A program made the translations under genes and the position numbers. Shown here one piece after another: positions 1,637-54,906 of a DNA stretch of 64,000 nt (the stretch's first letter is position 1; every line of letters starts with the position of its first letter). The stretch covers positions 1,176,262-1,240,261 of the forward strand of contig OZ241853.1 of assembly GCA_965202685.1 (NCBI GenBank). Reading direction: 5' to 3'. The notes below the pieces were generated by a model. It was given only the letters and a program-made list of their open reading frames with translations. It was not told where the DNA came from and ran no database searches. The stretch is from Gammaproteobacteria bacterium (GTDB lineage: Bacteria; Pseudomonadota; Gammaproteobacteria; Eutrophobiales; Eutrophobiaceae).

Positions 1637-2770
1637 TTACTCATCGCCGGCCGCGGTGGCGGCAAAGGGTTCGAATTCGCTGGCGGGCCCTGTCCGCCGG
1701 CACAGGCGGCGCAGGTCCGAGGCCATGCGGCCGTGCCAGTTCGCGCTGCGGAAACGCTCTCCTTGGCGTCTGGCGCCCTTGCTTAAACGGCGACGCAGGG
1801 CCGGATCCCCTAACAGACGCTCGATGGCGGCTCGCAAAGCCGCGGCGGAACGAGGCGCCACCAACAGCCCGTTTTCCTCGTGCTTGACCAGTTCCGGGAC
1901 TTCGCCGCAACGAGTGGCGATGACAGGCAGGCCGCATTGGAAAGCCTCAATGATGATGCCGGGGTAGCCCTCAGTGTCATAGCGACTTGGGAACAACAAG
2001 ATGTCGTGTTCGACTAGAACTCGCGGCACTTCCGCGGGTTCCAGGACGCCGCCGTAGCTGGCCCTGGGATGGTTGTCGAACAGGGAAAAGTCCGTGTTGG
2101 ACATGCCTGGCCCAAAAACCCGCAGGTGGCAATGCTCAGGCAGGCCGCGGCAGGCTTCCAGGGCCTCCGCCAGCCCTTTGTCCATCTCCAGGCGGGCAAT
2201 GAAGAGCAACTTGCCGGCGGCGCGCGCGGATGCGCCGGGCCGGGCCGAGGGCGGCGCGGGGACATTTCGCGTATTGGGAAACCAGCGAAAATTGGCGGGG
2301 TCGCCGAAGTCCCGGCGCAGGCGCCGGGTCTCGACATAGATCAGCGCGGAGCGCAACCAGGCGCGCTCGGCCAGCCAGCGCGCAACCGGGCCGTAGCCGC
2401 GATAGACCCGGTGCAGTTCGGAACCGGAGAAGCGCAACACCAAGGGGCGTCGCGCCAACGCGCAGACTATCCAGAGGGACGAGGCCAACAGGGTCGCCGA
2501 GTTGGCGCCCAAGACGAGAAACGCCAGCTGACAACGCCGAATCTTCCGCGCCGCTCCCCCGAACACCCGCAGAAACCGCATGAGGCGCGCAGCCTGAATC
2601 CTCCAGGCGGGCAGATTGGTGACATCGCCGGAGGTGTCAATGCACTCCAGGTCGAACCCCCGCCGGCGCAACTCGCTTGCGGACTCGGCGGATAGCAACC
2701 TGTTCCCGCCGATAACATTGGTGGCGGATTGCCCCGAACCCAAGGGGCTGATGAACAGGATCCGCGGCAT
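1637..2770 (-). CDS. Glycosyltransferase family 1 (GT4-type, GT-B fold)
   Basis: C-terminal EGYPGIIIEAFQCGLPVIATRCGEVPELVKHEENGLLV is the classic GT1 E-x7-E motif region. Likely start MPRILFISPLGSG at 2770 (ORF track start 2983 is probably too far upstream). ATGA start/stop overlap with the upstream flippase gene. Confidence 0.75.
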   Translation of the reverse strand: MPRILFISPLGSGQSATNVIGGNRLLSAESASELRRRGFDLECIDTSGDVTNLPAWRIQAARLMRFLRVFGGAARKIRRCQLAFLVLGANSATLLASSLWIVCALARRPLVLRFSGSELHRVYRGYGPVARWLAERAWLRSALIYVETRRLRRDFGDPANFRWFPNTRNVPAPPSARPGASARAAGKLLFIARLEMDKGLAEALEACRGLPEHCHLRVFGPGMSNTDFSLFDNHPRASYGGVLEPAEVPRVLVEHDILLFPSRYDTEGYPGIIIEAFQCGLPVIATRCGEVPELVKHEENGLLVAPRSAAALRAAIERLLGDPALRRRLSKGARRQGERFRSANWHGRMASDLRRLCRRTGPASEFEPFAATAAGDE

Positions 2771-4137
2771 CAGGGGGCAACTCTTTTCTCGGCGCCGCGC
2801 TCCCACAGGGCCCAGAGGGACTCGCGCAGGTAGGTCGCGTCCCCGCCTTGCGGCAACCACACGGCCCGCCAACTCATGCCGGTCAGCCTGCTGAACACCG
2901 CGGTGAGAAATAGACATTGGCAAACCATGCCGATGGTCAAAGCCCAAGCGGCACCCTGAACTCCCGTGAGCGGGAACAGCCAAAACAACGCGCCGACATT
3001 GACGCAGAGTCCCAGACAGACCCCCCAGGAGCAGATCCCCGGACGGTCAACCCCCTTGAAGTAGGTCATCAATATGTTGGCGGTCGCGGAGGCCAAGCTT
3101 CCAGGCGCGATGATCCAGAGCAACGGCGTCATGGGCAGGAAGGCCTCCGACAGCAACAAGCGCACCAGTGGCTCGCTAACTGCTAACAAGCAGAGAATGG
3201 GAAGGGCCGTGCCGCCGCAGACCAAGCGCAAACACCGGGCCGCCAGTTCGTGACGCTCCCGTCCCGCGATGCGGGGCAACATCGCGTTGCTCACCGAATT
3301 GGAGACCACGCCAAATCCGAATATGATCGAAATGGCGGCGGCGAACAGGCCAATGTCGGCGCCGCTGGCGATCACCCCCAACAGGACGATCCCTAATTGC
3401 GGCCCTATGCCCCCCCCGATGCGGGCAAGATGGTAGCGCCAGCCATAATGGAGGATCCGCGTGAAACACGAGCGGGATGGCGGAAAAGTCAGAACCAGCC
3501 CGCAATGTCGCCGCAGATACCAAAGACAGGTGGCTATCATCACCAAAGGCCCGGTGGCGAAAGCCGCGAGGGCGCCATCAACCCCTAACCCCCAGCCCCA
3601 GACGAACAACAACACCGCCAGCGCGTTGGTCGTCACCCTAAGCAACGAGAAGACCGCCAGCCGGGCAAAGCGTCTGAGGGCGGCCAGTTGATGTTCGACA
3701 GCGGCCGAGAAGGCCGTGAGGGGCACCAAAGCCAGCCCCCAGTAAAAAGAATGGGTTTCCGCCTTGTGAAAAAAGGCGAGGTCGCTGTGGATCAATGGGA
3801 TGGCCACCACGCTGGCCAACAGCCCGCCAACCAAGCAAATCGTCAGGGCCGAGGACACAGCCTGAGACACGGTGGTCTGCCCGGTCATCACAAACTGTTG
3901 CGCGCCCTGCTGAGCGCCAGGCGCGAAGAATAGGCCCAACAAGGTGCCGAACACAAGACACAGAGCGTAGCTGCCCCTGCCTTCAGGAAGCAACAGGTAG
4001 GCCAACATTCCCTGGATCAGGAGCCCGACTATGACAAGGCCAACCCGGGTGGCGAAGGCCATGGCGACATCCTGTCCGCCGGTGGTGTCCGGGCTATCCA
4101 GCGCGGCGCCTGTTCCGGTGCCAGGGGGGTTGAACAT
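2770..4137 (-). CDS. Polysaccharide/oligosaccharide flippase (MOP superfamily, Wzx-like)
   Basis: 455-aa ORF with about 12 predicted hydrophobic helices, typical of Wzx/MurJ-type exporters. Flanked by glycosyltransferases. The true start may be the internal Met (MAFATRV...). Confidence 0.6.
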   Translation of the reverse strand: MFNPPGTGTGAALDSPDTTGGQDVAMAFATRVGLVIVGLLIQGMLAYLLLPEGRGSYALCLVFGTLLGLFFAPGAQQGAQQFVMTGQTTVSQAVSSALTICLVGGLLASVVAIPLIHSDLAFFHKAETHSFYWGLALVPLTAFSAAVEHQLAALRRFARLAVFSLLRVTTNALAVLLFVWGWGLGVDGALAAFATGPLVMIATCLWYLRRHCGLVLTFPPSRSCFTRILHYGWRYHLARIGGGIGPQLGIVLLGVIASGADIGLFAAAISIIFGFGVVSNSVSNAMLPRIAGRERHELAARCLRLVCGGTALPILCLLAVSEPLVRLLLSEAFLPMTPLLWIIAPGSLASATANILMTYFKGVDRPGICSWGVCLGLCVNVGALFWLFPLTGVQGAAWALTIGMVCQCLFLTAVFSRLTGMSWRAVWLPQGGDATYLRESLWALWERGAEKRVAP

Positions 4138-4167
4138 GAGGCGTCGAGCTATCCCTCAGCTGGCGGC

Positions 4168-6405
4168 TTACGCCTCTGAAACGGCCTGCTCGACCCGGGC
4201 CGGCGGCGCGGCGCGCTGGGCCGTCCGGAACAGCGGCAGGAAGAAACCTAGCCCCCAGCTTAAATGCATGGTCACCAACACCACCGGCAGGATCAAGGCG
4301 GCCGGCTCCCGTTGGCGGATCCCCGCCGTCAAAGTCGTGGCGGCCAAGGCGCAAAGATATGCAAAGGGCACCAACGCCGCCGCCAGCCAAGGGGCCCCGG
4401 TCCAGCCCAACCCCGCCGACCCCGCCAGGCCCAACACCAACAACGGCGCCGCGAAGTGCCGCGGCAACGCCGCCTGCGGATGACGCCACAGCACCACCCG
4501 CTTCCAACGGCCGTAGCTAAAATATTGCCGGGCCAAAGACCACCAAGTGTCCCGCGCGCGATAATCCACCATCAACTTGGGGTCGAACCACACCACCCCG
4601 CCGTTTTTCCGCAACCGACAGTTCAATTCATAGTCCTCGGCGCAATCCAAGGAGGAATCATACCCCCCCGCCGCGTTCAAAGTCTTGCGCCAAAACACCC
4701 CTAAGTACACCGTGTTGTCCGGCCCCTCCGGTCCTCCGACCCGAAACCGCGCCCGCCCCGTGCCAAGCAAAGTGTCCAACGCGCACGACACCGCGCGCTC
4801 GAAAAACGTCGTCCCAAATGGCCGTTGCCGCCCCCCCACATTCGCCGCCCTGGTCTCCTCCAAAGTCTCAACCGCCAACCGCAGATAGTCCGGCGGCAAT
4901 ATCGTGTGCGCATCGCAACGCGCCACCACCTCCCCCGTCGCCACCTCCAGCGCCGCGTTCACCCCCGGCGCGATGACCCGACACGGATTCGGCACCACCC
5001 GCACCCACGGGTAGCGCTGTCGCAGCAACTCCATCATGGCCGGCGTGTCCGAGCCATCCGCCACGACAACCTCCACCCGTCCGGGATAGTCCTGAGCCCG
5101 CACCGACTCCAGCGCCTCCGCAATCGTCCCCTCCGCGTTGCGCGCCGGGATGATCACAGACACCCCCGGCGCCGAAGCATCGAGCGCTATGGCGGGCCGG
5201 GGACATTGCCATCCAAGAGCTTGTTGATTCGAGACGGCGGCGGATTCAGCGCTTTCTGCAAGGGTTGGCTTGGCCCGGGCCGGCGGCGCGGCGCGCCGGG
5301 CCGTCCGGAACAGCGGCAGGAAGAAGCCCAGACCCCAGCTTAAATGCATGGTCGCCAACACCACCGGCAGGATCAAGGCGGCCGGCTCCCGCTGGCGGAT
5401 CCCCGCCGCCAAGGTCGTGGCGGCCAAGGCGCAAAGATATGCAAAGGGCACCAACGCCGCCGCCAGCCAAGGCGCCCCGGCCCAACCCAACCCCGCCGAC
5501 CCCGCCAAGCCCAACACCAACAACGGCGCCGCGAAGTGCCGCGGCAACGCCGCCTGCGGATGACGCCACAGCACCACCCGCTTCCAACGACCATAGCCAA
5601 AATATTGCCGGGCCAAAGACCACCAAGTGTCCCGCGCGCGATAATCCACCATCAACTTGGGGTCGAACCACACCACCCCGCCGTTTTTCCGCAACCGACA
5701 GTTCAATTCATAGTCCTCGGCACCGTCCAAGGAGGAATCATACCCCCCCGCCGCGTCCAAAGTCTTGCGCCAAAACACCCCCAAGTACACCGTGTTGTCC
5801 GGCCCCTCCGGTCCTCCGACCCGAAACCGCGCCCGCCCCGTGCCAAGCAAAGTGTCCAACGCGCACGACACCGCGCGCTCGAAAAACGTCGTCCCAAATG
5901 GCCGTTGCCGCCCCCCCACATTCGCCGCCCTGGTCTCCTCCAAAGTCTCAACCGCCAACCGCAGATAATCCGGCGGCAATATCGTGTGCGCATCGCAACG
6001 CGCCACCACCTCCCCCGTCGCCACCTCCAGCGCCGCGTTCACCCCCGGCGCGATGACCCGACACGGATTCGGCACCACCCGCACCCACGGGTAGCGCTGT
6101 TGCAACAACTTCATCATGGCCGGCGTGTCCGAACCATCCGCCACGACAACCTCCACCCGTCCGGGATAGTCCTGAGCCCGCACCGACTCCAGCGCCTCCG
6201 CAATCGTCCCCTCCGCGTTGCGCGCCGGCATGATCACAGACACGCTCGGCGCCGAAGCATCAGGCGCTATGGCGGGCCGGGGACATTGCCACCCAAGAGC
6301 TTGTTGATTCGAGACGGCGGCGCCAAACTGCGCGGCATTCAGCGCTGGCTCGATGGACGGGTCGGAATCCGCGAATTGTTGAGACTGTCGATTTTCAGCA
6401 GTCAT
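4168..6405 (-). CDS. Tandemly duplicated GT2 glycosyltransferase: two GT2 domains, each followed by 4 TM helices, fused in frame. Polyprenyl-phosphate sugar synthase (GtrB/ArnC/DPM1-like) architecture is suspected.
   Basis: 745 aa. The motif block VSVI(M/I)PARNAEGTIAEALESVRAQDYPGRVEVVVADGSDT ... AEDYELNCRL ... hydrophobic C-terminus occurs twice. The two ~1080-bp nucleotide halves (4201-5243 and 5280-6322) are near-identical. Confidence 0.8.
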   Translation of the reverse strand: MTAENRQSQQFADSDPSIEPALNAAQFGAAVSNQQALGWQCPRPAIAPDASAPSVSVIMPARNAEGTIAEALESVRAQDYPGRVEVVVADGSDTPAMMKLLQQRYPWVRVVPNPCRVIAPGVNAALEVATGEVVARCDAHTILPPDYLRLAVETLEETRAANVGGRQRPFGTTFFERAVSCALDTLLGTGRARFRVGGPEGPDNTVYLGVFWRKTLDAAGGYDSSLDGAEDYELNCRLRKNGGVVWFDPKLMVDYRARDTWWSLARQYFGYGRWKRVVLWRHPQAALPRHFAAPLLVLGLAGSAGLGWAGAPWLAAALVPFAYLCALAATTLAAGIRQREPAALILPVVLATMHLSWGLGFFLPLFRTARRAAPPARAKPTLAESAESAAVSNQQALGWQCPRPAIALDASAPGVSVIIPARNAEGTIAEALESVRAQDYPGRVEVVVADGSDTPAMMELLRQRYPWVRVVPNPCRVIAPGVNAALEVATGEVVARCDAHTILPPDYLRLAVETLEETRAANVGGRQRPFGTTFFERAVSCALDTLLGTGRARFRVGGPEGPDNTVYLGVFWRKTLNAAGGYDSSLDCAEDYELNCRLRKNGGVVWFDPKLMVDYRARDTWWSLARQYFSYGRWKRVVLWRHPQAALPRHFAAPLLVLGLAGSAGLGWTGAPWLAAALVPFAYLCALAATTLTAGIRQREPAALILPVVLVTMHLSWGLGFFLPLFRTAQRAAPPARVEQAVSEA
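4201..6322 (-). repeat. ~1080-bp direct tandem duplication (2 units, ~97% identical) internal to the GT2 gene
   Basis: Sequence at 4201 onward (ccggcggcgcggcgcgctgggccgtccggaacagcggcagg...) recurs at 5280 onward, and the similarity runs to 5243/6322. The period is a multiple of 3, so the reading frame is preserved. Confidence 0.9.
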
Positions 6406-6530
6406 ATTGCGCTATTTTTAGCCATCTGCATATCGGGTTGATTATAATACAATGGAGAAAAGTGTCTATCCCCTTGCAGAATAACAGAAAATTGAGCTAA
6501 GCCGCTTTTTAACGCCAAGCCGCGGGGCCT
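6405..6530. promoter_or_regulatory. AT-rich divergent intergenic region with a TATAAT box (6442-6447, palindromic ATTATAAT); putative promoter(s)
   Basis: Locally AT-rich (ttgattataatacaatggagaaaag) in an otherwise GC-rich window. Lies between the divergently oriented GT2 gene and the pseudogene fragment/methyltransferase. No clean -35 box was identified. Confidence 0.3.
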
Positions 6531-6697
6531 CATCGCGCCTGAAGACGAGGCTCTGCTAAAGGTTGCGGCCCGCCGCGTCGCGCTGGAAAACGCGCCGGAG
6601 GGCGGGTGTGACAAATTAAACACGGCGGGCTTGGTTGAGCGCGACTAATCCGAGGCGGCAGGGGAGCTGAAGAAAAAACTTCGGCAGACAAAAATAG
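6528..6697 (+). pseudogene. Fragment (~55 codons) of the membrane-anchored periplasmic protein family (paralog of 7611-9278 and 52851-54581)
   Basis: 6531-6695 aligns at nucleotide level with 7770-7930 of gene 7611 (…gccgcggcccg(g/c)cgcgtcgcgctggaaaacgcgccggagggcg…aaacacggcgg…aaacttcgg…). Encodes LVAAARRVALENAPEGG...; there is no start codon and it is interrupted by a stop. Confidence 0.6.
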
Positions 6698-6713
6698 TGG
6701 TAAAGTTCAACGG

Positions 6714-7457
6714 GTGTTCAACCCCCCTCCCGAGTGGCGAAAAAAAGCCAAGCTAAAACTGGAGCGAGTCCACCTCCGCGACTTAGGCAGGCACTTGTAC
6801 CGGTGTCTGCGGACCTTGCGACAATGGCCGCGGACCCTGTTGCGCGCCAACAGCCGCATTGTCCAACGCTATTTTGCGCAGACAGACGAACCGAAATTGC
6901 ATCTTGGTTGTGGCGACTGCCTGCTGGAGGGCTGGCTGAATTCGGATTTGTTTCCCTGCTCTCCGCGGGTTTTGCGCCTGGATGCGACGCGCCCGTTTCC
7001 CTTTGCGTCCAACACTTTCGCCTACGCCTACAGCGAACATCTAATTGGGTTGCTTGCCACACGGCAGGCAAAGCGCATGTTGCGCGAGTGTTTTCGCGTG
7101 TTAGCGCCGGGCGGCAAGGTGCGCATCTGCACCCCGGATCTGGCTTTCCTGATTGAACTATGCGGCCCGCAACCTTCCGCGTTGCAAGAGCGGTACATTG
7201 AGTGGGCCAGCGGCCAGTCCACCGAAAGAGGGCGGGCCGTTGTAATCAACAACATGGGCGAGACTTACGGACCCTTTGTCTATGATGAACCGCACCTGCG
7301 CGGCGTCCTCGAGGACGCCGGTTTCTCGAATATAGTCTCGCGCGACCTGAACCAGAGCGATGACGCGGCGCTACGGGACCTGGCGAACGAGAAACGGTTG
7401 CCGGAGGGGTTTTTGCGGCTTGAATCACTCACCATGGAGGGGAGCAAACCTTTTTAG
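6714..7457 (+). CDS. Class I SAM-dependent methyltransferase (Methyltransf_11/25-like)
   Basis: LHLGCGDCLLEGWLNSD (motif I, GxGxG-like), FAYAYSEHLIGLL, and RVLAPGGKVRICTPD (motif post-II/III), typical of small-molecule/sugar methyltransferases. Confidence 0.7.
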   Translation: MFNPPPEWRKKAKLKLERVHLRDLGRHLYRCLRTLRQWPRTLLRANSRIVQRYFAQTDEPKLHLGCGDCLLEGWLNSDLFPCSPRVLRLDATRPFPFASNTFAYAYSEHLIGLLATRQAKRMLRECFRVLAPGGKVRICTPDLAFLIELCGPQPSALQERYIEWASGQSTERGRAVVINNMGETYGPFVYDEPHLRGVLEDAGFSNIVSRDLNQSDDAALRDLANEKRLPEGFLRLESLTMEGSKPF

Positions 7458-7610
7458 CTTGTTTTTAGCTTGTTAGTTTTTCGTCAGGCAACTGGCGTGA
7501 GGAGCGAGGAAGGGAGTGTGCAAGCAGCACATGACTGACTGAACGCGGAAGCGCCAGGACGCATGGCGGAAAACTAACAAGCTAAAAGCTAAAATGGTAG
7601 AATTGGGTGA

Positions 7611-9278
7611 ATGCTCAAACGCCTCCCTTTCATCCTGTTTGTCGCGGCCCTGGTTCTGGGCGCCTTCTTTGCTGGCATGTGGGTCTGGCAAGCCCGCGTG
7701 TTTCCCTATCACTTGGCGCACTCCGCTCACAAAACCCTGAGGGTCGCTCTGGAAATGCGCAACTTCATCGCGTCTGGAGACAGGGACAAGTTAGTGGCCG
7801 CGGCCCGGCGCGTCGCGCTGGAAAACGCGCCGGAGGGCGAAAGCAACAAGTTAAACACGGCGGACCTGCTTGAGTGCGACAGGTCCGAGGCGGCAAAGAA
7901 AACGAGGAGAAAACTTCGGTCAGAAAAATTCAAGCAACTGGGATGTCTGACAGCGCGCGTTGCCCGCCGCGAGGCGAGTGCAAAGCGCATCGAGTTCATC
8001 GTCGCCGACCGGCTCCATGACCCGGTGCTGGTAGGGGGAGGGGTCGGCATGTTTCTTGAGCATTGTCCACCCCCTCCGCATTCGGGGTTGTCTGGGGGTT
8101 GCTTGGCGGTGGAATATTCGCGCAATGGCGAAGTGAGCCGCGCCGTGCCATTCCGGCCCCAAGCCATCGAAGCGGCCAATATCGTTTCTGAAGAGGACTA
8201 CCTTTCTGAACATCCCCCGGGTTGGGTGTTCTGGAGAAATGTGAATGTGGTGTCAGTCGCCCCCTACCCTGACGGAGACTTGTTGGTCACTTTTCGACTG
8301 GCCCATACTTTTCCCTATGGCGGCGGCGCGGCCCGCGTGGCGCGAGACGGGCATCCGCGCTGGTTTCGCAAGGACTACAGCCACCACTGGCCCCATATTG
8401 TCGATGACCAACTCGCCTTGGTCCCAGGCGGGCGAATGGAATGGGGAAACAACGTTCTGCCCATGCGGGTGGGACATCTGAAAAAAGACATAACCTGTCA
8501 TCGCGATCAGAAATGGATGGTTGACACCGTCAACCTGATAGATGGCAAGGGGCGTCTATTGGAAGAGATTGACATCTTGGGCGCGTTGCTCGAATCTCCC
8601 TACAACGGCATCTTCCTCCTCCAGCTTAGGCAGTGTGATGTCACTCATCTTAACTTCGCGCACCAGCTGGGCGCCGACGCGGGCGGCGCGGACAGCATCG
8701 CCCCAGGCGACATCGTGGCCTCGTTGCGGAGTCTTAGCGCGTTCGGCATCATAGACCGGGACACTCGGCGGCTAAAGCGGTTGGTGCGAGGCAGTTTCGT
8801 CAATCAACACGCTGTCCGTCACTTTGAGAAGGCGCGGTTTCTCATGTTTGACAACTTGGGCACCGATGGCGTTCACGGCCCGTCCCGCTTGTTGATGGTT
8901 GACTTGGCCACCGGCAAGGAAACCACGCTGTTCCCCCGGGACCACACTCCGACCCATCTGCGCCGGGTTACGGCTGTCAATGGCCATATAGAGGTGTCGC
9001 CGGACCGGCAACGCGTTCTCTTCAATGAAAAAACACACGGCCGGATTCTGGAGTTGCGCCTTTCCGATGGCCGGGTTTTGAACATTTTTCGCCAGTTGCA
9101 TGATCTGTCGAGCGTCGATGCCATTCCTGACCCCTTTCGGCAACGGGCGTGGGTTTTCCAATCGGGGGCTTCTAGTTACGCTAACCAATGGTCCGATCAT
9201 CCCTCGACCGTTTCTTTTTCCTCAACATTGACGGCAAGATCGCCATCCGCCACGGAGACGAAAACGCGCCCGCCATGA
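7611..9278 (+). CDS. Membrane-anchored periplasmic protein of unknown function (paralog A). Weak resemblance to arylsulfotransferase-like beta-propeller proteins.
   Basis: 555 aa. N-terminal signal-anchor (LPFILFVAALVLGAFFAGMWVW) then a large soluble domain. Paralogous to 52851-54581. The C-terminal ~30 codons overlap the convergent clpA 3' end, so the real stop may be earlier. Confidence 0.6.
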   Translation: MLKRLPFILFVAALVLGAFFAGMWVWQARVFPYHLAHSAHKTLRVALEMRNFIASGDRDKLVAAARRVALENAPEGESNKLNTADLLECDRSEAAKKTRRKLRSEKFKQLGCLTARVARREASAKRIEFIVADRLHDPVLVGGGVGMFLEHCPPPPHSGLSGGCLAVEYSRNGEVSRAVPFRPQAIEAANIVSEEDYLSEHPPGWVFWRNVNVVSVAPYPDGDLLVTFRLAHTFPYGGGAARVARDGHPRWFRKDYSHHWPHIVDDQLALVPGGRMEWGNNVLPMRVGHLKKDITCHRDQKWMVDTVNLIDGKGRLLEEIDILGALLESPYNGIFLLQLRQCDVTHLNFAHQLGADAGGADSIAPGDIVASLRSLSAFGIIDRDTRRLKRLVRGSFVNQHAVRHFEKARFLMFDNLGTDGVHGPSRLLMVDLATGKETTLFPRDHTPTHLRRVTAVNGHIEVSPDRQRVLFNEKTHGRILELRLSDGRVLNIFRQLHDLSSVDAIPDPFRQRAWVFQSGASSYANQWSDHPSTVSFSSTLTARSPSATETKTRPP

Positions 9279-11458
9279 AGCAACTTGCCGAACAGGAGTT
9301 CCTCGGCGAGCTTCCTTTTAATCCGCTCCTGTAGGAGACGCGCCATGGGTCTGGCCCCCATAACCTTGTCGTAACCATGTTCCCCTAACCACAGGCGGGC
9401 AGCTTCATCCGTTTCGAGAGAGACCTTCTTGTCATCCAGTTGGGCCTGCAACTCCACCAGGAATTTATCCACCACATTGAGTATGGTTTTCTGGTCCAGC
9501 GCGTTGAATTCTATGATGGCGCTGAGACGATTGCGAAATTCCGGGCTGAAGGTCTTTTTGATGATCTCCAGGGCGTCGGAACTGTGGTCTTGCCGGGTGA
9601 AGCCTACGGAGGCTCGGCTGATGCGGTCGGCCCCCGCGTTGGTGGTCATGATTAACACCACATTGCGGAAATCGGCTTGGCGGCCGTTGGTGTCCGTCAA
9701 GGTCCCGTGGTCCATGACTTGCAACATCAGGTTGAACACATCGGGATGGGCCTTTTCCATCTCATCCAGGAGCAACACGCAATGCGGGCGCTTGTTTATC
9801 TCGTCGGTGAGCAGGCCGCCCTGATCGAAGCCCACATAGCCCGGAGGCGCGCCTAACAGGCGCGACACAGTGTGACGCTCCATGTATTCGGACATATCGA
9901 AGCGCACCAAGTCAATCCCCATCACATTGGCCAGTTGCTTGCTGACTTCTGTCTTGCCGACTCCCGTGGGGCCCGCGAACAGAAAAGCGCCTATGGGTTG
10001 TTGCGGATTGCCTAGCCCCGAGCGCGACATCTTGATGGCGAAAGCGAGAGATTCGATGGCCCGGTCCTGGCCGAACACCACCATCTTGAGGTTGCGCTCC
10101 AGATTTTTCATAACATCCTTGTCGGAGGCCGTCACCGTCTTGGATGGAATGCGCGCTATCCGAGAGACGATGGTTTCTATGTCGGGCGCGCCTATAACCT
10201 TCTTGCGCCGCGAGGGCGGCAACAGTTGTTGCGATGCGCCGGCCTCGTCGATGATATCTATGGCCTTGTCGGGCAGGCGGCGGTCAGTGATGTAACGCTC
10301 GGTCAATTCCGTCGCCGAGCGCAGGGATTGGTGGGTGTAGCGCACGGCGTGGTGTTGTTCGAATCTGGACTTGAGCCCTTGCAGGATTTTCACGGTCTCC
10401 TCGATGGAAGGCTCGGTCACATCGATCTTCTGGAAGCGCCGCGCCAGGGCCCGATCTTTCTCAAAGATGCCGCGAAACTCCTGGTAGGTGGTGGAACCTA
10501 TGCACTTGACCTCGCCGGAAGCCAGCACTGGCTTGATGATGTTGGAGGCGTCCATAACGCCGCCGGAGGCAGCGCCGGCGCCGATAACGGTGTGGATCTC
10601 ATCGATGAAAAGAATGGCGCCATCCTGTTCTGTCAGTTCGGCGATGACGCCTTTCAGGCGTTTTTCAAAGTCCCCGCGGTATTTGGTGCCGGCCAACAGG
10701 GCTCCCAGGTCCAAGGCGTGTATGGCGCAACCCGACAGAGCCTCCGGCACCTGTTTTTCGACGATCTGCCTGGCTATGCCCTCCACAATGGCGGTCTTGC
10801 CGACGCCTGCCTCGCCCACTAACAGGGGGTTGTTTTTCCGGCGTCGGCAAAGTATCTGCATGGTGCGCCGCACCTCGTGTTCACGCCCGATGAGCGGGTC
10901 TATCTTGCCCAGTTCCGCCTGCTGGTTCAGGTTCACGGTGAAGAGCTCCAAGGGACTCTTGGCGCTGTCGCCCTGGCGCGTCTCGCTGTCCGCGCCGGTG
11001 GCGGCGCCCTCAGCCCCCTCCTCCGGCACCTTGGAAATCCCGTGGGAGATGTAATTCACCACATCCAGTCGCGTGATGTCTTGCTCATTCAGAAAAAAGG
11101 CGGCATGGGATTCGCGCTCGCTGAAGATCGCCACTAACACATTGGCGCCGGTGACCTCTTGTTTGCCGGTGGACTGCACATGCAACGCCGCCCGTTGCAA
11201 CACCCGCTGAAAGCCCAAAGTGGCTTGGGGTTCCCGCTCGTCGCCCTCGACAAGCAACGGCGAATTGGCGCCAAGGAACTGGGACAGGAGGTCGCGCAAC
11301 TCGCCCAGGTCCGCGCCGCAGGCCCGTAGCGCTTGGGCGGCAGGGGGGTTGTCCAGCAGAGCCAACAGCAGACACTCGACCGTCAGATATTCGCGCCGCG
11401 CCTCCCGCGCCTTCCTGAAGGCGTCGTGCAGAGTTTGTTCCAAGTCTTTATCAAGCAT
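9197..11458 (-). CDS. clpA: ATP-dependent Clp protease ATP-binding subunit ClpA
   Basis: Two AAA+ modules with Walker A motifs (GEAGVGKT, GPTGVGKT) and the ClpA N-domain. Start probably MLDKDLEQTLH at 11458 rather than the ORF track's 11515. Immediately downstream of clpS, as in proteobacteria. Confidence 0.95.
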   Translation of the reverse strand: MLDKDLEQTLHDAFRKAREARREYLTVECLLLALLDNPPAAQALRACGADLGELRDLLSQFLGANSPLLVEGDEREPQATLGFQRVLQRAALHVQSTGKQEVTGANVLVAIFSERESHAAFFLNEQDITRLDVVNYISHGISKVPEEGAEGAATGADSETRQGDSAKSPLELFTVNLNQQAELGKIDPLIGREHEVRRTMQILCRRRKNNPLLVGEAGVGKTAIVEGIARQIVEKQVPEALSGCAIHALDLGALLAGTKYRGDFEKRLKGVIAELTEQDGAILFIDEIHTVIGAGAASGGVMDASNIIKPVLASGEVKCIGSTTYQEFRGIFEKDRALARRFQKIDVTEPSIEETVKILQGLKSRFEQHHAVRYTHQSLRSATELTERYITDRRLPDKAIDIIDEAGASQQLLPPSRRKKVIGAPDIETIVSRIARIPSKTVTASDKDVMKNLERNLKMVVFGQDRAIESLAFAIKMSRSGLGNPQQPIGAFLFAGPTGVGKTEVSKQLANVMGIDLVRFDMSEYMERHTVSRLLGAPPGYVGFDQGGLLTDEINKRPHCVLLLDEMEKAHPDVFNLMLQVMDHGTLTDTNGRQADFRNVVLIMTTNAGADRISRASVGFTRQDHSSDALEIIKKTFSPEFRNRLSAIIEFNALDQKTILNVVDKFLVELQAQLDDKKVSLETDEAARLWLGEHGYDKVMGARPMARLLQERIKRKLAEELLFGKLLHGGRVFVSVADGDLAVNVEEKETVEG

Positions 11459-11477
11459 GTTCGATCTTGCGGTTTTT

Positions 11478-11810
11478 TCAGGCTTTTTCCATTGTACACA
11501 GCAAAGGGTGTTCATGCTCGCGCGAATATTGGTTGACCTGCGCCACCTTGGTCTCCGCGATTTCCAAGGTAAAAACGCCGCACACTCCTATCCCCCTGGT
11601 GTGCACCTCTAACATGATCCGCGTCGCGGTTTCCCGGTCCATGACAAAAAAGGCCTCGAGAATATGGACGACGAACTCCATGGGCGTGTAGTCGTCATTC
11701 ACCAAGATGACCTTGTAGAGGGGCGGGCGCTTGAGTTTCGGCTCGGCTTCCTCCAGAGCCGTGCCGCCTTCGTATTGTTCGTAAGGCAATTGCGAGGACA
11801 TGGCGATCAC
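11478..11810 (-). CDS. clpS: ATP-dependent Clp protease adaptor protein ClpS
   Basis: 110 aa. [24 protein letters not shown] is the canonical ClpS core. In clpS-clpA operon order. Confidence 0.95.
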
Positions 11811-12012: not shown

Positions 12013-12192
12013 CCTTTTAGCTTGTTAGTTTTCCGTTATCCTGCCTGGCGCTTCCGCGTTCAGTCAGTTTAGCTTGTCACATCCGCCATGCATCGCGGCA
12101 TTTCTTCACGCGGTCGGTCATGTATTTGACATACACTCCCTCCCGCGCTCATCATGCCGCTTGCCTGACGAAAAATTTCCGTCGCTAAATGC

Positions 12193-14283
12193 TTGTCGCG
12201 CCAGTTGCCTAACGAAAAACTTCCGTCGCTAAAACACACTTGCAGGCTCCATTATTTTGCCTGGCGCATTGACCGCTATAATGATGGCATTATGGCGGCA
12301 ATGAAAAATCGCATTGGAGAACGGATCCGGTTCCATGGCTTAGCGTTGATTGCATGCGCCCTGTTCCTCCTTGCGGGCCTCGCCATCGTCGATGACTACG
12401 GCGTTTCGGCGGACACAGACCCTCAACGGGATATCACCCTCGCTAACCTCAACCACATCCTGCATGACGGCCCAACCCTGTTGCGAAGGGCCGCTGACCA
12501 CCTCTACGGCGTCGCCTTCGAGTTGCCCCTGTTCCTGTTGACGGAACGGATCCTGGGGCTGGAAGACCCGCGTCATGTCCACTTGGCCCGCCATGTCCTG
12601 ACCCATCTGTTTTTTCTAATCGGCGGGTTCTGTTGCTATCTGCTGGCGTTTCGATTGTCCGGCGACCGGCTGGTGGCTCTGTTGGTCATGTTGCTGTTTC
12701 TCTTGTCCCCGCGTCTTTACGCCCATTCCTTTTTCAACAGCAAGGATCCGGTGTTCGCCAGCGCCTTCGTCATGGCCTTGCTCTTTGCGAGCCGCGCCTT
12801 TGACAGGGACTCGGTGGGGGCCTATCGGTGGAGCGGGATGGCAGTGGGGCTTCTCGTCAACCTGCGCATCATGGGCGTGGTTCTGTTTGCCGCCGTGTTG
12901 GTCTTTCGGGCCTGGGCCTGGTTCCGGGCCGAGGGGGGCGCGGCGCGGCGGCGGGTGGTGGCGACCACTGGCGTTTTTGCCCTGTGGGGGGGCCTTGTCT
13001 TGTTCATCAGCCTGCCCTACCTCTGGAGGGACCCCGCAGGGCGGCTGGCGGAAATGGTCGTTGCATCGGCCAATCATCCCACCACCGTTTACATGTTGTT
13101 TGGAGGGAAGGTTTTTCTCAGCGCGGCGTTGCCTTGGGACTATGTGTTGCGCTGGTTCGCCATCAGCCAGCCGCCGGTGACCCTGTTGTTGGGTTTGTTG
13201 GGCCTAGGAGCCTTGGGCCTTGCCGCTGGAAGCGTCGTCAGACGCGGCGCAGACGCCGCGCCGGGGCGCGGCTTGGGAGGGGGCGCCGAGTTGCGCTTCG
13301 GCGTCCTGCTCGCAGCCTGCTTTGCGTTGCCCCTGGTTGCTTTTGTTCTGTTGCGGCCCAATACCTACCATGGCTGGCGGCATTTTTATTTCCTGCACGG
13401 GCCGTTTTGCCTGCTGGCGACCTTCGCCCTGATGGGGATGCGCCAGCTGTCGGCGCGGGGGTTGCAAAGAAGATGGGTCGGCGGCGCGGCTTGCGCACTG
13501 ACGGCGATGGGGCTGGGCGTCGTGGTGGTCCAGATGGCGCAGATCCATCCCCACCAATATCTCTATTTCAACTTTTTTGTGGACCGGAAGACACCGGAGC
13601 GGTTGCGCGCTTGGCACGAGATGGATTACTGGAATATGACGCTACGGCAGGGTTACGAATACATGCTGAGACAGACCCCGGCCGGCGCCATTAACATCAA
13701 AGAAGACTTCGCAACAAGGAAAGAGAAGTTGGATATAGAGATTCTTCCCGCGGCAGACCGGCACCGGTTCGGCCACGACCCGACTCGCGATTTGAACTTC
13801 TATTTGGACAAAAGCCCGGGCCGGTACCTGCCGGTAGAGACTTTCCCCCCCGTTCTTTACCGGCTCAAGGTCTATAACAACACCATTATGACCATTTCCA
13901 CGCCAGATCTGTCCCGGGTTGACCCGAGGGTGGCGGAGGTGTATCGGGTCTTGCATCGAGCGGCGACGGAGGAGGAGGCGGCTCGCGGGGGCGGCTATGA
14001 AGTCCACCGGCACGGCCGGTGGCTGGCGTGGGTGAAAGAGGCTTGCGAGCCTGGGGCACTGAGGCGCGAGTTCTGGCTCAAGCTTTATCCGGCGGACGCG
14101 GGCCGCTTGCCGGCCCATCATCGGAAACGGGGCTACTTTATAATCAGCGTCCGCGGGGTGCGGTTTGACGGCAAGTGCCTGGGGGCGCGACGGCTGCCGG
14201 ACTTCGCCTTGGCCCGCGCGCGCCTGGGGCAGTCTGTTCCTGGAGGGGAGTTGCTATGGGAAACCGAGGTGCCTCTTCTTTAG
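12193..14283 (+). CDS. Array copy 1: GT-C-fold (ArnT/PMT/GtrC-like) polytopic membrane glycosyltransferase-like protein with conserved C-terminal periplasmic domain
   Basis: 696-aa ORF (likely start MAAMKNRIGE near 12292). 11 predicted TMs, DDYG in the first periplasmic loop, and conserved motifs LSPRLYAHSFFNSKDPVFASAFVMALL, WRHFYFLHGPFCLLATFAL, KVYNNT, VRFDGKCLGARRLPDFALAR. C-tail class ...LLWETEVPLL. Confidence 0.85.
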   Translation: MSRQLPNEKLPSLKHTCRLHYFAWRIDRYNDGIMAAMKNRIGERIRFHGLALIACALFLLAGLAIVDDYGVSADTDPQRDITLANLNHILHDGPTLLRRAADHLYGVAFELPLFLLTERILGLEDPRHVHLARHVLTHLFFLIGGFCCYLLAFRLSGDRLVALLVMLLFLLSPRLYAHSFFNSKDPVFASAFVMALLFASRAFDRDSVGAYRWSGMAVGLLVNLRIMGVVLFAAVLVFRAWAWFRAEGGAARRRVVATTGVFALWGGLVLFISLPYLWRDPAGRLAEMVVASANHPTTVYMLFGGKVFLSAALPWDYVLRWFAISQPPVTLLLGLLGLGALGLAAGSVVRRGADAAPGRGLGGGAELRFGVLLAACFALPLVAFVLLRPNTYHGWRHFYFLHGPFCLLATFALMGMRQLSARGLQRRWVGGAACALTAMGLGVVVVQMAQIHPHQYLYFNFFVDRKTPERLRAWHEMDYWNMTLRQGYEYMLRQTPAGAINIKEDFATRKEKLDIEILPAADRHRFGHDPTRDLNFYLDKSPGRYLPVETFPPVLYRLKVYNNTIMTISTPDLSRVDPRVAEVYRVLHRAATEEEAARGGGYEVHRHGRWLAWVKEACEPGALRREFWLKLYPADAGRLPAHHRKRGYFIISVRGVRFDGKCLGARRLPDFALARARLGQSVPGGELLWETEVPLL

Positions 14284-14468: not shown

Positions 14469-16478
14469 ATGGCGGCAATGACAAACCCCATTGGAGAACG
14501 GGCCCGATTTCATAGTCTGGCGTTGATCGTGTGGTCCCTGTTCCTGATAGCGGGCCTCGTCATCGGCGATGACTACGGCGTCCCGCCGTATGCGGGAGGC
14601 CAGCGTTTTGTCGCCATCGACACCCTCAACTATGTCCTGCATGGGGACCAAACCCTGTTGCAAATAGCCGCTGACCGCTTCTACGGCGTCGCCTTCGAGT
14701 TGCCCCTGTTCCTGTTGGAACGGGTCGTGGGTCTGGAAGACCCGCACTATGTTTATTTAGCCCGCCATGTTCTGACCCATCTGTTTTTTCTAATCGGCGG
14801 GTTCTGTTGCTATCTGCTGGCGCGGCGCTTGGCCGGCGACCGGCTGATCGCGCTGTTGGTCATGTTGCTGTTCCTGCTGTCCCCACGCCTTTACGCCCAT
14901 TCCTTCTTCAACAGCAAGGATGCGGTGTTCGCCAGCGCCTTCGTCATGGCATTGCTCTTTGCGAGCCGCGCCTTTGACAGGGACTCGGTGGGGGCCTATC
15001 GGTGGTGCGGGGCGGCGGCGGGGCTTCTCATCCACCTGCGCGTCATGGGCGTGGTTCTGTTTGCCGTCGTGTTGGTCTTTCGGGCCTGGGCCTGGTTCCG
15101 GGCCGGGCGCGGCGCGGGGCGGCGGCGGGTTGTAGTGACCACTGGGGTCTTTGCCCTGTGGGGGGGCCTTGTCTTGTTCATCAGCCTGCCCTATCTCTGG
15201 GGCGACCCCATAGGGCGTCTTTCAGAATATTGGACAGTGTTGGCCGACCATCCTGTCGTTTTTTATGAATTGTTCCGGGGTCAGGTGTTTTTCAGCGCGG
15301 CGTTGCCTTGGGATTATGTGTTGCGCTGGTTCGCCATCAGCCAGCCGCCGGTGACCTTGTTGTTGGGCCTGTTGGGCATGGGGGTCTTGGGCCTTGCCGT
15401 TAGGGGCGCCGTCAGACGCGGCGCGGGCGCCAGGCCGGGGCGCGGTTTGGGCGCCGCCGAGTTGCGCTTCGGCGTCTTGCTCGCAACCTGCTTTGCGTTG
15501 CCCCTGGTTGCCTTTGCCCTGTTGCGGCCCAACACCCTCCAGGGTTGGCGGCATTTTTATTTCCTGCACGGGCCGTTTTGCCTGCTGGCGACCTTCGCCC
15601 TGGCGTGGTTGCGCCAGCTGTCGGTTCGAGGGTTGCAAAGAAGATGGGTCGGCGGCGTTGCCTGCGCGCTGACAGCGGCGGGGCTAGGCGCGGCAGCGTT
15701 GGAGATGGCGCAGATCCATCCCCATCAATATCTCTATTTCAACTTTTTTGTGGACCGGAAGACCCCGGAACGGCTAAGCGAGCGCTACGAGACGGATTAC
15801 TGGAACATGATGTTGCGGCAAGGGTATGAACACATTCTGCGGCAAACGCCTGCTTCCACCATTAACATGAGGCCGCGGGTAGTTGGGACGGCGATGGTGG
15901 GGGTAGTTGGGACGGCGACGGTGGCGGACATCAACCGCAATGTGCAGATCCTTCCGGAGGCGGCCCGGAGCCGGTTCATCTTCGACCCCGCTCGGGACCC
16001 GGATTTCTACTTGGGCGGAAATGCGGAGAAAAGCTTCCTGCCTAAAGATCCTTTCTCTCCCGTTCTCCATCGGATCAAGGTCTATAACAACACCATTATG
16101 ACCATATCCACACCGGATTTGTCCCGGGTTGACCCAGCGGTGGCGAATGCGTATCGGGCTTTGCAGCGGGCGGCGATGGCGGGGGCGCCGGCGGCGCGGG
16201 CGGGGGGCTTTGATGTGCACCTGCATGGCCAGCGGCTGGCGTGGGTGAAGGAGGCTTGCGAGCCTGGGGAATTGATGTCGCCGTTCCGGCTCAGGTTTTA
16301 TCCGGCGGACGCGGGCCGGTTGCCGAACCATCTCCGGAAACATGGCTACTTTGCAACCAGCGTCCGCGGGGTGCGGTTTGACGGCAAGTGCCTGGGGGCG
16401 CGACGACTGCCGGATTTCGCCTTGGCCCGGGTGCGCTTGGGGCAACCAGGGAAGTGGGAAGTCGACATCCCCTTTTAG
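14469..16478 (+). CDS. Array copy 2: GT-C-like membrane glycosyltransferase paralog
   Basis: 669 aa with the same conserved TM core and C-terminal domain. Linker contains a 24-bp x2 in-frame tandem repeat (15879-15926, VVGTAMVG/VVGTATVA). C-tail class GKWEVDIPF. Confidence 0.85.
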   Translation: MAAMTNPIGERARFHSLALIVWSLFLIAGLVIGDDYGVPPYAGGQRFVAIDTLNYVLHGDQTLLQIAADRFYGVAFELPLFLLERVVGLEDPHYVYLARHVLTHLFFLIGGFCCYLLARRLAGDRLIALLVMLLFLLSPRLYAHSFFNSKDAVFASAFVMALLFASRAFDRDSVGAYRWCGAAAGLLIHLRVMGVVLFAVVLVFRAWAWFRAGRGAGRRRVVVTTGVFALWGGLVLFISLPYLWGDPIGRLSEYWTVLADHPVVFYELFRGQVFFSAALPWDYVLRWFAISQPPVTLLLGLLGMGVLGLAVRGAVRRGAGARPGRGLGAAELRFGVLLATCFALPLVAFALLRPNTLQGWRHFYFLHGPFCLLATFALAWLRQLSVRGLQRRWVGGVACALTAAGLGAAALEMAQIHPHQYLYFNFFVDRKTPERLSERYETDYWNMMLRQGYEHILRQTPASTINMRPRVVGTAMVGVVGTATVADINRNVQILPEAARSRFIFDPARDPDFYLGGNAEKSFLPKDPFSPVLHRIKVYNNTIMTISTPDLSRVDPAVANAYRALQRAAMAGAPAARAGGFDVHLHGQRLAWVKEACEPGELMSPFRLRFYPADAGRLPNHLRKHGYFATSVRGVRFDGKCLGARRLPDFALARVRLGQPGKWEVDIPF

Positions 16479-48742: not shown

Positions 48743-50729
48743 ATGGTCAATTCACCGCTTGCATGGCGGAAAACTAACAAGCTAAAACGGGCCCGATTTC
48801 ATAGTCTGGCGCTGGTCGTGTGCGCCCTGTTTTTGATAGCGGGCCTCGTCATCGTCGATGACTACGGCGTCTCGTTAGATGCGGATGGACAACGCCGTGT
48901 CGCCATCAACACCCTCAACTATGTCCTGCATGAAGTCCAAACCCTGTTGCGAACCCATGACCGCTTCTACGGCGCCGCCTTCGAGGCGCCCCTGTTCCTC
49001 TTGACGGAACGGGTCCTGGGCCTGGAAGACCCGCGCCATGTCTATTTGGCCCGCCATGTCTTGACGCACTTGTTTTTTCTAATCGGCGGGTTCTGTTGCT
49101 ATCTGCTGGCGCGGCGCTTGGCCGGCGATCGTCTGATCGCGCTGTTGGTCATGTTGCTGTTCCTGCTGTCCCCGCGTCTTTACGCCCATTCCTTCTTCAA
49201 CAGCAAGGATCCAGTGTTCGCCAGCGCCTTCGTCATGGCCTTGCTCGTCGTGAGCCGCGCCTTTGACAGGGACTCGGTGGGGGCCTATCGGGGGTGCGGG
49301 GCAATGGCAGGATTTCTCATCAACCTGCGCATCATGGGCGTGGTTCTGTTTGCCGTCGTGTTGCTCTTTCGGGCCTGGGCCTGGTTTCGGGCCGAGGGCG
49401 CGGCGCGGCGGCGGGTTGTGGCGACCGCTGGCGCTTTCGCATTGTGGGGGGGTCTTGTCTTGTTCATCAGCCTGCCTTACCTCTGGAGGGACCCCGCAGG
49501 GCGGCTGGCGGAAATGGTCGCGCTGTTGTCCCACCATCCTAACATTGTCTTCGAACTGTTCCGGGGTCAGGTGTTTTCCAGCGCGGCGTTGCCTTGGGAC
49601 TATGTGTTGCGCTGGTTCGCCATCAGCCAGCCGCCGGTGACCTTGTTGTTGGGGCTGTTGGGCCTGGGGGCCTTGGGTCTTGCCGCTGGGAGCGTCGTCA
49701 GACGCGGCGCGGGCGCCGGGCCGGGCGCGGCATGGGGGGGGGGGGGGGGGGGAGTTGCGCTTCGGCATTCTGCTGGCAACCTGTTTTGCGTTGCCCCTGG
49801 TCGCCTTTGTCCTGTTGCGGCCCACGCTTTTCGATGGCTGGCGGCATTTTTATTTCCTGCACGGGCCTTTTTGCCTGCTGGCGACCTTCGCCCTGATGGG
49901 GTTGCGCCAACTATCGGTTCGAGGGTTGCAAAGAAAATGGCACGGCGGCGTTGCCTGCGCGCTGACGGCAACGGGTCTGGGCACGGCGGCGTTGGAGATG
50001 GCGCAGATCCATCCCCACCAATATCTCTATTTCAACTTTTTTGTGGACCGGAAGACCCCGGAACGGCTAAGCGAGCGCTACGAGACGGATTACTGGAACA
50101 TGATGTTGCGGCAAGGGTATGAACACATCCTGCGGCAAGCGCCCGCTTCCACCATTAACATGAGGCCGCGATTCAACCGCAGTGTGCAGATTCTCCCGGC
50201 GGCGGCCCGGAGCCGGTTCACCTACGACCCCGAGCGGGATCCGGATTTCTACTTGGTAAGCAACACCATAAATTCGCCGTCAAGCATGCTTAAGGACTCT
50301 TTTCCTCCCGTTCTTCATCGGCTCAAGGTCTATAACAACACCATGTTGATCGTATCCACGCCGGATCTGTCCCGGGTTGACCCGGCGGTGGCGGAGGCGT
50401 ATCGGGCTCTGCATCGGGCGGCGACAGCGGAGGCGCCGGCGGCCCGGGCGGGGGGCTTCGATGCGCGCCTGCATGGCGAGCGGCTGGCGTGGGTGAAGGA
50501 GGCTTGCGAGCCCGGGGAATTGATGGCGCCGTTCCGGCTCAGGCTTTATCCGGCGGACGCGGGCCGTTTGCCTAGTGGAAGCTACTTCGAACTCGGCATC
50601 CGCGGGGTGCGGTTTGATGGCAAGTGCCTGGGGGCGGCGCGACTGCCGGATTTCGCCCTGGCCCGGATTCGCCTGTGGCAGTTCGTTCTTGGCGGAGGTT
50701 TGCTGTGGGAAACTGATATCCACTTCTAA
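48743..50729 (+). pseudogene. Array copy 17: GT-C-like paralog split by a frameshift at a G19 homopolymer (ORFs 48743-50122 and 49680-50729). Either a pseudogene or a phase-variable gene. 5' end is also the replaced type (junction 48787/48788).
   Basis: Other copies read ...ggcgcggcatgggggggtgccgagttgcgc... (GAWGGAELRFG). Here the sequence is catg + 19 G + agttgcgc, and the frame switches at the tract. The downstream ORF resumes the conserved ELRFGILLATCF... sequence. Confidence 0.7.
49734..49752 (+). repeat. Homopolymeric G19 tract inside array copy 17 (candidate slipped-strand phase-variation site, or a sequencing error)
   Basis: Counted directly: G run from 49734 to 49752. Paralogous positions in other copies carry G7-TGCCG. 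Confidence 0.8.
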
Positions 50730-54581: not shown

Positions 54582-54906
54582 CTTGTTTAGCTTGTTAGTT
54601 TTCCGCCATGTGGCGCGGCGTTTCCCCGCTCGGCCAGTTTTAGCTTGTTAGTTTTCCGTTATGTTGCCTAGCGCTTCCGCGTTCAGTCAGTTTAGCTTGT
54701 TACATCCGCCATGCGTCCTGGCGTTTCCTCGCTCGGCCAGTCATGTATTTGACATACACTCCCGCCCTCGCTCCTCACGCCAGTTGCCTGGCGAAAAATT
54801 TCCGTCGCTAAATGTTTGTCGCGCCAGTTGTCTAACGAAAAACTTCCGTCGCTAAAAAGTGGTCAATTCGCCAGTTGCCTGACGAAAAATTTCCGTCGCT
54901 AAAAAT

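Follow-up and report, generated by a model that had tools for sequence, protein, structure and literature searches.

The A/B locus

Two paralogous genes, here called A and B, lie on the plus strand of a 64-kb stretch of gammaproteobacterial DNA (contig OZ241853.1, positions 1,176,262 to 1,240,261; this whole stretch is referred to as the window). As a preliminary description of this DNA had placed them, both open reading frames (ORFs) are present and full-length, and their products align from end to end with 56% identity (BLASTP E = 0). Each has a single strongly hydrophobic N-terminal segment (residues 1-28), modelled as a helix in both proteins, in agreement with the common anchor proposed earlier. 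This anchor, in combination with conserved cysteines, suggests a periplasmic location. The main difference between the two proteins was missed in that description: A carries the complete set of putative catalytic residues that are invariant in its family, while B is without most of these conserved active-site residues. The features of the locus are listed in Table 1.

B was correctly described as embedded in a tandem array, where it is found between the copies at 50845-52851 and 54907-56889. This array consists of about 20 glycosyltransferase C-type (GT-C)-like genes (12193-56889, all on the plus strand) for polytopic membrane proteins of about 660 amino acids. The direct Pfam matches of the array proteins to PMT_2 are weak, yet the label 'GT-C-like' is acceptable because a 55%-identical homologue at locus L007 of another genome has a solid precomputed PMT_2 match. 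A is indeed close to clpSA but not upstream of it in the sense of transcription, since clpA (9197-11515, minus strand) runs towards it and the two genes share 82 nt at their 3' ends. Compared to its orthologues, A has a C-terminal extension of 28 amino acids (window 9200-9278), which is disordered and overlaps the 3' end of clpA. In the relative represented by locus L017 (85% identity), the A orthologue ends at 530 amino acids and is followed by two repeat elements of ~113 bp and then by sequence resembling the A tail (L017:11588-11929), with 95% identity over 22 amino acids. In another assembly, A is split into products of 343 and 193 amino acids (P0275 and P0276) encoded on the same 17,088-bp contig; the gene may be disrupted in some members of the population, or the contig may be misassembled.

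Table 1. Genes A and B, their internal features and the surrounding elements of the window.
Feature	Position	Strand	Length	Description
Gene A	7611-9278	+	555 aa	Membrane-anchored, predicted ASST/Cpz4-like six-bladed beta-propeller; complete set of family-invariant putative catalytic residues
Putative catalytic residues of A, H258/H259	8382-8387	+		
Putative catalytic residues of A, H346-x-N348	8646-8654	+		
Putative catalytic residues of A, S371-x-R373	8721-8729	+		
Putative catalytic residues of A, Q399-H400	8805-8810	+		
Putative catalytic residues of A, D414-N415 and S425-R426		+		
Gene B	52851-54581	+	576 aa	Paralogue of A; same predicted fold, degenerate active site
In-frame repeat in B	53850-54047	+	66 bp x 3	GRDNPAFTNSIH... 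/ GCNNPALTNSIH... / GCNNPAFANSIH...
GT-C-like gene	50845-52851	+		Stop codon overlaps the ATG of B (TGATG, 52849-52853)
Class I S-adenosylmethionine-dependent methyltransferase	6714-7457	+		Conserved partner of A
A-type pseudogene fragment	6523-6723	+		tblastn match of A residues 50-114, 57% identity, E 6e-13
Divergent polysaccharide cluster	1637-6405	-		GT4 1637-2983; Wzx-type flippase 2770-4137; tandem-fused GT2 x 2 4168-6405
~113-bp hairpin repeat element, one copy	7465-7585			Inserted between methyltransferase and A

Fold and family membership

The family to which A and B belong is large. A search with A yielded 369 homologues, none of which is given a name by any source, and an exhaustive profile search returned 1,810 cluster representatives (clustered at 50% identity) at E <= 1e-3 and 822 at E <= 1e-10. 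A scan of metagenome contigs with the family alignment gave 600 pattern matches, none of them confirmed. Among 48 aligned family members, 18 match PF14269 (Arylsulfotran_2), and both a close relative of A (P0010, 73% identical, 31.5 bits) and a distant one (P0081, 33.9 bits) score above the gathering cut-off of 27. In the case of A and B themselves there is no Pfam match even at E <= 1, which places the A/B clade at the limit of what the current model covers, or outside it.

The AlphaFold2 model of A (pLDDT 81.7, pTM 0.78) comprises a transmembrane helix (residues 4-28), a second helix, a disordered linker (51-86) and a beta-rich domain (~110-523). Structure comparison predicts this domain to be a six-bladed beta-propeller, as is typical for the catalytic domain of arylsulfate sulfotransferases (ASSTs). 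By Foldseek, A and B take a Cpz4-like propeller fold; TM-scores of A to Cpz4 and to the ASST of Escherichia coli (EcAST) are 0.40-0.48, at 15-18% sequence identity. The propeller is kept in the model of B (pLDDT 76.4), for which Cpz4 is again the best match. A profile of 114 sequences also reaches Cpz4 by sequence (E 3.8e-5), with the motifs SxRN, QH, FDN and SR aligned; this broad profile is needed, as a profile of close homologues or P0081 alone gives only chance matches to the sequences in the PDB. Fold, Pfam membership of the relatives and conserved catalytic motifs agree, and the 'weak arylsulfotransferase-like impression' left by the first inspection was thus correct and has become firmer.

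Putative active site of A

The active site of EcAST consists of His252, His356, Asn358, Arg374, the transiently sulfurylated His436 and Thr501 (review, PMC13426309). As reference we used the gene of strain CFT073 (L016:18857-20653), which adjoins dsbL and dsbI. The published residue numbers were verified on this sequence with an offset of 27 residues for the signal peptide (ATH-ES, WAH-V-N-S, LSS-R-H, YTQ-H-T and SPI-T-S). In an hhalign comparison, R373 of A falls on Arg374 and H400 on His436, while FDN aligns with FDN and SR with SR. A plain hidden Markov model (HMM) alignment gives the same result for the QH...FDN...SR block; it also covers one earlier blade and leaves HxN unaligned. Q399-H400 is paired with Q-H436 of EcAST (motif T-Q-H; both hhalign and HMM) and with W-Q-H of Cpz4, and S371-L-R373 with S-S-R374 and S-G-R, respectively. 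The putative nucleophile H400 is conserved in 109 of the 112 family sequences.

The near-invariant H346-L-N348 and H258-H259 stand in the right order between the aligned anchors and would correspond to His356/Asn358 and His252 of EcAST, although neither hhalign nor the HMM pairs them directly. When an N-terminal sub-profile spanning HH and HxN was compared with the PDB, Cpz4 was not reached and only spurious matches to SLM4 and CylK appeared. No equivalent of Thr501 was identified in A. Conservation was assessed in an alignment of 48 sequences, 38 of them non-B and 10 from the B clade (B and nine orthologues). Twelve positions of A (H258, H259, H346, N348, S371, R373, Q399, H400, D414, N415, S425 and R426) occur in every one of the 38 non-B sequences; in a broader set of 112 diverse sequences their conservation is ~90-99%.

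Degenerate active site and internal repeat of B

All 10 proteins of the B clade are without H258, H259, H346, R373, N415 and S425, and the position of R373 is occupied by Pro in each of them. In B itself, Q253-P254 replaces the HH pair, F384 replaces H346, P411 replaces R373, S453 replaces N415 and T458 replaces S425, while H438, corresponding to H400 of A, is retained. N348 and C342 are lost in half of the clade and H400 in three of the 10 members. Five cysteines, R242, W251, D367, S371, G394, R426 and D431 are invariant in the B clade and the non-B sequences alike; these are the fold-defining residues. In a neighbour-joining tree, the B clade and the A-type clade are sisters within the wider family, and a long stem leads to the former. 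B is a duplicate of an A-type gene that arose within this lineage.

B orthologues differ from one another with a ratio of nonsynonymous to synonymous substitution rates (dN/dS) of 0.60-0.77 and A orthologues with one of 0.34-0.38, at unsaturated dS values of 0.24-0.46. Full-length intact ORFs are present in 10 divergent B orthologues, with 67-87% identity to B, whereas a neutral simulation gives a probability of ~5e-4 of finding no stop codon after 300 substitutions. B has therefore persisted as an ORF although the constraint on it is relaxed or altered. A fold that appears retained in the model, catalytic residues lost in 10 of 10 sequences, a dN/dS below 1 and an intact ORF are the marks expected of a pseudoenzyme, and these features make B most plausibly a derivative that no longer catalyses a reaction but on which selection still acts. 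As in known cases where a pseudoenzyme persists next to an active enzyme, the predicted fold and the structural residues of B are preserved, six invariant residues of the putative pocket are missing throughout its clade, and B evolves faster while its ORF stays intact; it differs from such cases in that its binding or regulatory role is hypothetical. Literature searches for an ASST-family pseudoenzyme found none. We know of no described example, and the B clade appears to be the first such clade noticed in this family.

An in-frame tandem repeat in B had been described as 63 bp in ~2.5 copies. The repeat is real, yet its period is 66 bp (22 codons) and it comprises three copies (53850-53915, 53916-53981 and 53982-54047), with 38-nt cores that are 84-89% identical (self-blastn E 9e-16). 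Tandem Repeats Finder at score 30 did not report it in B. The third copy is the original segment, with its counterpart in A, and the insertion thus amounts to two extra copies. The repeat triplicates precisely the degenerate HxN strand, with PAF(T/A)NSIH in place of PTHLNFxH. In the model, the two extra copies (residues 332-378) have a pLDDT of 34-45 and are predicted to form a disordered loop. Among B orthologues the copy number is 1, 2 or 3.

Neighbours of the family in distant taxa

A scan of genome contigs with A gave only 3 loci, and the neighbour statistics presented here rest on 17 loci. Outside the A/B clade, the A family itself occurs in tandem arrays, with at least seven copies at L008, four at L006, four or five at L013 and three at L005. 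A gene for a Sulfotransfer_3 protein, a sulfotransferase that depends on 3'-phosphoadenosine-5'-phosphosulfate (PAPS), stands beside the family in five context types (L002/L014, L005, L006, L008/9 and L013). In L005, L008/9 and L013, a dual methyltransferase and a GT2 are encoded as well. Two context types have no such partners: in L003/L015 the family member is next to lnt, and in L012 it is solitary. The Cpz-type combination of a PAPS-dependent sulfotransferase encoded with an ASST-type enzyme is thus found in five distant contexts and not in the window. Several of the Sulfotransfer_3 partners have an N-terminal transmembrane helix followed by an Arg-rich stretch, which predicts a cytoplasm-facing catalytic domain at the membrane.

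The methyltransferase gene preceding A provides the link between the window and these distant loci. Its product shares 55-56% identity with the N-terminal half of the dual methyltransferase whose gene neighbours those for Sulfotransfer_3 and A-family proteins in L008/9 and L013, and 49% with that of L005. Given this homology, the linkage between methyltransferase and ASST-like gene is the conserved one. In L017, the methyltransferase gene directly abuts A, with one base between stop and start.

Amplification is reciprocal between the two settings. In the window the GT-C-like genes are amplified ~20-fold and the A family is reduced to one putatively active copy; elsewhere the A family is amplified (at least seven copies). 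The distant loci (L008 99-21554, L006 8075-14814, L013 and L005) encode only one or two large polytopic membrane proteins, comprising DUF6311/PMT_2-like proteins, a 573-amino-acid protein and DCC1-like/HTTM fusions. At L006, stretches resembling the N-terminus of Sulfotransfer_3 (48-49% over ~66-69 amino acids) are located between A-family copies at 9519-9716, 11424-11621 and 14831-15028; they may be relics of repeated duplications of an A-family gene together with a Sulfotransfer_3 gene.

Association with the GT-C-like array

Within the lineage of A and B, the proximity to GT-C-like genes is consistent. B orthologues are syntenic in L001, L010 and L011, where they follow a GT-C-like gene and precede rsmA-pdxA-surA-lptD. 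B is single-copy at the distal end of the array in these relatives, whose contigs typically break inside the repetitive array. The overlap between the stop codon of the upstream GT-C-like gene and the start of B suggests translational coupling, and L010 has the same overlap of 1 nt. At L007, three A-type genes directly precede a single GT-C-like gene, which suggests that the association predates the expansion of the array in this lineage. At the L017 locus, the methyltransferase gene and A, both on the plus strand, are followed by clpA, clpS and the first GT-C-like gene.

A GT-C-like gene of the window type is adjacent to A/B-type genes only within the A/B clade (L001, L007, L010, L011 and L017). 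None was found within 10 kb in the seven distant context types outside this clade (L002-L006, L008/9 and L012-L015); the A-family array of L008 includes one PMT_2-like DUF6311 protein. The closeness of A and B to the GT-C array is a feature of this lineage and not of the protein family. An accessory role of A and B towards GT-C enzymes, as first suggested, thus holds only locally, in this lineage and for the overlapping B/GT-C pair. As a general claim it does not stand, since homologues are widespread without GT-C neighbours and the predicted structure belongs to a characterised family.

The preliminary description had also derived the array from an ancestral duplicated unit of a B-type gene plus a GT-C gene. 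A tblastn search of the whole window with A and B recovers A, B and one remnant, and no other A/B fragments in the array spacers. With no A/B fragment elsewhere in the array, and with B single-copy and distal in relatives, such a unit is not supported. The nucleotide similarity between A and B starts just 16 nt upstream of the start codons. Homology of the A and B flanks was considered as a sign of a larger duplicated unit and was ruled out, because the flanks share only a ubiquitous ~113-bp element. The remnant, previously placed at 6528-6697, is real. It contains an in-frame TAA and shares with A a 30-nt block that is missing from B, and is thus of the A type; its ~90% nucleotide identity in L017 indicates an old fragment. 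It lends no support to the proposed unit, being A-type and located beside the methyltransferase gene rather than beside a GT-C gene.

Other features of the window

The polysaccharide cluster diverging from the methyltransferase-A pair has the same gene order in L017, where the minus strand encodes two Wzy_C/leucine-rich repeat (LRR) proteins, a 375-amino-acid protein, GT4, Wzx and GT2 x 2. The two adjacent Wzy_C/LRR proteins (L017 1-3019, minus strand; 612 amino acids each) join a Wzy_C domain (O-antigen ligase/polymerase) to leucine-rich repeats and form the far end of the cluster. The GT2 gene at 4168-6405 (minus strand) is a head-to-tail fusion of two nearly identical GT2 plus transmembrane modules, with a product of 745 amino acids in the window and 763 in L017. 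It was rejected as a homologue of the GT2 in the distant Sulfotransfer_3-methyltransferase-GT2 module, as no similarity was found at E 1e-4. Homology of the window methyltransferase to its relatives begins near codon 35 (6714-6816), and the annotated GTG start, which overlaps the A-type remnant, is therefore probably too early, with the true start downstream.

The ~113-bp element, which has inverted TTAGCTTGTTAGTTTT termini, occurs 48 times against 0.02 expected, in both orientations and often in tandem. It is present at 7465-7585, at 12017-12234 and in nearly every array spacer up to 57064, for example at 54585-54700 downstream of B. A long hairpin (-70.9 kcal/mol, z = -9.5) is predicted for the copy that precedes A. 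Between methyltransferase and A, the element is present in the window and absent in L017, and downstream of A two copies are present in L017 and none in the window. By these presence/absence differences it behaves like a mobile element resembling a miniature inverted-repeat transposable element (MITE) or a repetitive extragenic palindromic (REP) sequence, and it could be a driver of recombination in the array. At one array position, two overlapping plus-strand ORFs (48743-50122 and 49680-50729; 459 and 349 amino acids) stand in place of a single ORF of ~660 amino acids, which looks like a frameshifted GT-C copy. Likewise, L001 has split GT-C genes (529+127 and 383+277 amino acids).

Discussion

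We propose that A is a PAPS-independent sulfuryl transferase of the ASST/Cpz4 type and that B is a retained non-catalytic derivative of it, maybe a partner of a GT-C enzyme. We give this proposal a probability of roughly 0.55. A would be a bitopic inner-membrane protein with one N-terminal transmembrane helix, a flexible linker and a six-bladed propeller most likely facing the periplasm. By analogy with the characterised enzymes, a sulfated donor would hand its sulfuryl group to H400; R373, H346/N348, H258/H259, N415 and S425/R426 would keep it in place until it moves on to the hydroxyl of an acceptor. Since Cpz4 sulfates a sugar hydroxyl and the methyltransferase and A form an operon-like pair by a Wzx/Wzy-type cluster, this acceptor would most likely be an envelope glycan, possibly one handled by the neighbouring GT-C enzymes; the cluster at 1637-6405 is its likely source. 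B is probably co-translated with the GT-C-like gene directly upstream and may serve as a binding or adaptor partner of the GT-C protein.

Among the nearest systems are Cpz4 and LipB of Streptomyces (caprazamycin and A-90289; PDB 9kf4 and 9kf6). In the caprazamycin pathway, the PAPS-dependent Cpz8 sulfates a pyrone, and Cpz4 moves the sulfate to an aminoribose hydroxyl (PMC6731281, PMC4257720), in line with its preference for sugar hydroxyls (PMC13426309). The pairing of Sulfotransfer_3 with ASST-like proteins in distant taxa mirrors the Cpz8/Cpz4 pair. Cpz4 has ~470 amino acids and no membrane anchor, and works in actinobacterial secondary metabolism with a pyrone carrier made by a type III polyketide synthase (PKS). 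A and B, in contrast, are anchored, share 17-18% identity with it and occur in an envelope gene setting of the Gram-negative type (lptD, surA, Wzx/Wzy). EcAST (E. coli CFT073, PDB 3ELQ, PF05935) works as a soluble homodimer in the periplasm, has an N-terminal beta-sandwich and loses its signal peptide by cleavage, whereas A, at 15% identity, has a transmembrane anchor and a linker and, unlike the EcAST gene, no dsbL/dsbI neighbour.

Several observations weigh against this proposal. No Sulfotransfer_3 homologue is encoded in the 64-kb window, and none of the best 120 of 3,375 matches lies on the 2,971,370-bp chromosome of this organism. Type III and other PKS families are likewise missing from the Pfam gene lists of the loci examined and from the window ORFs scanned. 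A and B match neither Pfam nor NCBIfam models. The identity of A to Cpz4 and EcAST and the corresponding TM-scores are as low as given above, and the hhalign comparison of the family profile with EcAST has an E-value of 0.0014 at a probability of only 18%. The equation of H346/N348 with His356/Asn358 and of H258/H259 with His252 follows from motif order and not from an explicit alignment. Finally, the dN/dS of B is high enough to leave room for partial decay.

Among the alternatives, it is possible, though rather unlikely, that the ASST-like propeller with its His/Arg pocket serves another chemistry on anionic groups, such as sulfatase-like cleavage, phosphoryl transfer or hydrolysis, or a lyase reaction, with no sulfuryl transfer. 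Six-bladed propellers host many chemistries, and the low identity to characterised enzymes, the position of A below the Pfam threshold and the lack of donor-generating genes in the window would all be compatible with this. However, the nucleophile His, the Arg, FDN and SR align with both Cpz4 and EcAST, and in distant taxa the most frequent neighbour is a PAPS-dependent sulfotransferase, as in the Cpz8/Cpz4 pair. Doubtful is the explanation in which A and B specifically assist the GT-C enzymes, by preparing the acceptor or as partner enzymes, and the array grew by duplication of a B-type gene with a GT-C gene. It draws on the position of B in the array with its start overlapping the upstream stop, on the syntenic GT-C-then-B order in relatives, on the A-type genes directly before the PMT_2-matching GT-C of L007 and on the DUF6311 protein inside the L008 array. 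It is opposed by ~20 GT-C copies against one B with array spacers free of A/B fragments, by the A-type remnant next to the methyltransferase, by the seven distant context types without window-type GT-C and by the conserved partners of the family, which are the methyltransferase and Sulfotransfer_3. Very improbable is a functionless B, a redundant duplicate decaying towards loss with its repeat expansion as slippage noise: the clade-wide loss of six invariant residues, a dN/dS about twice that of A and a disordered insertion of variable copy number fit this idea, but intact ORFs in 10 divergent orthologues against the neutral expectation, the invariant cysteines and other fold-level residues, and the conserved synteny and start/stop overlap speak against it.

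The sulfuryl transfer proposed for A can be extended into a speculative scheme, to which we attach little likelihood. The A family would be the periplasmic half of a trans-membrane sulfate relay that gets round the lack of PAPS outside the cytoplasm. An anchored, cytoplasm-facing Sulfotransfer_3 and the conserved methyltransferase would load sulfate onto a membrane-soluble carrier; the carrier would flip, and arrays of anchored ASST-like paralogues would sulfate different envelope glycans. In the lineage of the window, the catalytic repertoire would have shrunk to A, and B would have become a non-catalytic adaptor translationally coupled to a GT-C gene, linking glycan transfer and sulfation.

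In summary, A is a newly recognised, membrane-anchored form of a known kind of enzyme, and nothing mechanistically unprecedented has been demonstrated. To our knowledge, almost no physiological roles of ASST-type enzymes are known besides those of Cpz4 and LipB. The present analysis offers an argued function for a large family left unnamed by all sources. It also changes the reading of the array, as A belongs with the methyltransferase and the Wzx/Wzy cluster and not with the array, while B, as a conserved and apparently dead enzyme derivative that is tied to one GT-C gene, becomes a concrete candidate partner of that gene's product. A widespread anchored clade, linked to PAPS-dependent sulfotransferase, methyltransferase and polysaccharide genes, would suggest that bacteria have a general means of sulfating glycans outside the cytoplasm that needs no PAPS in the periplasm.

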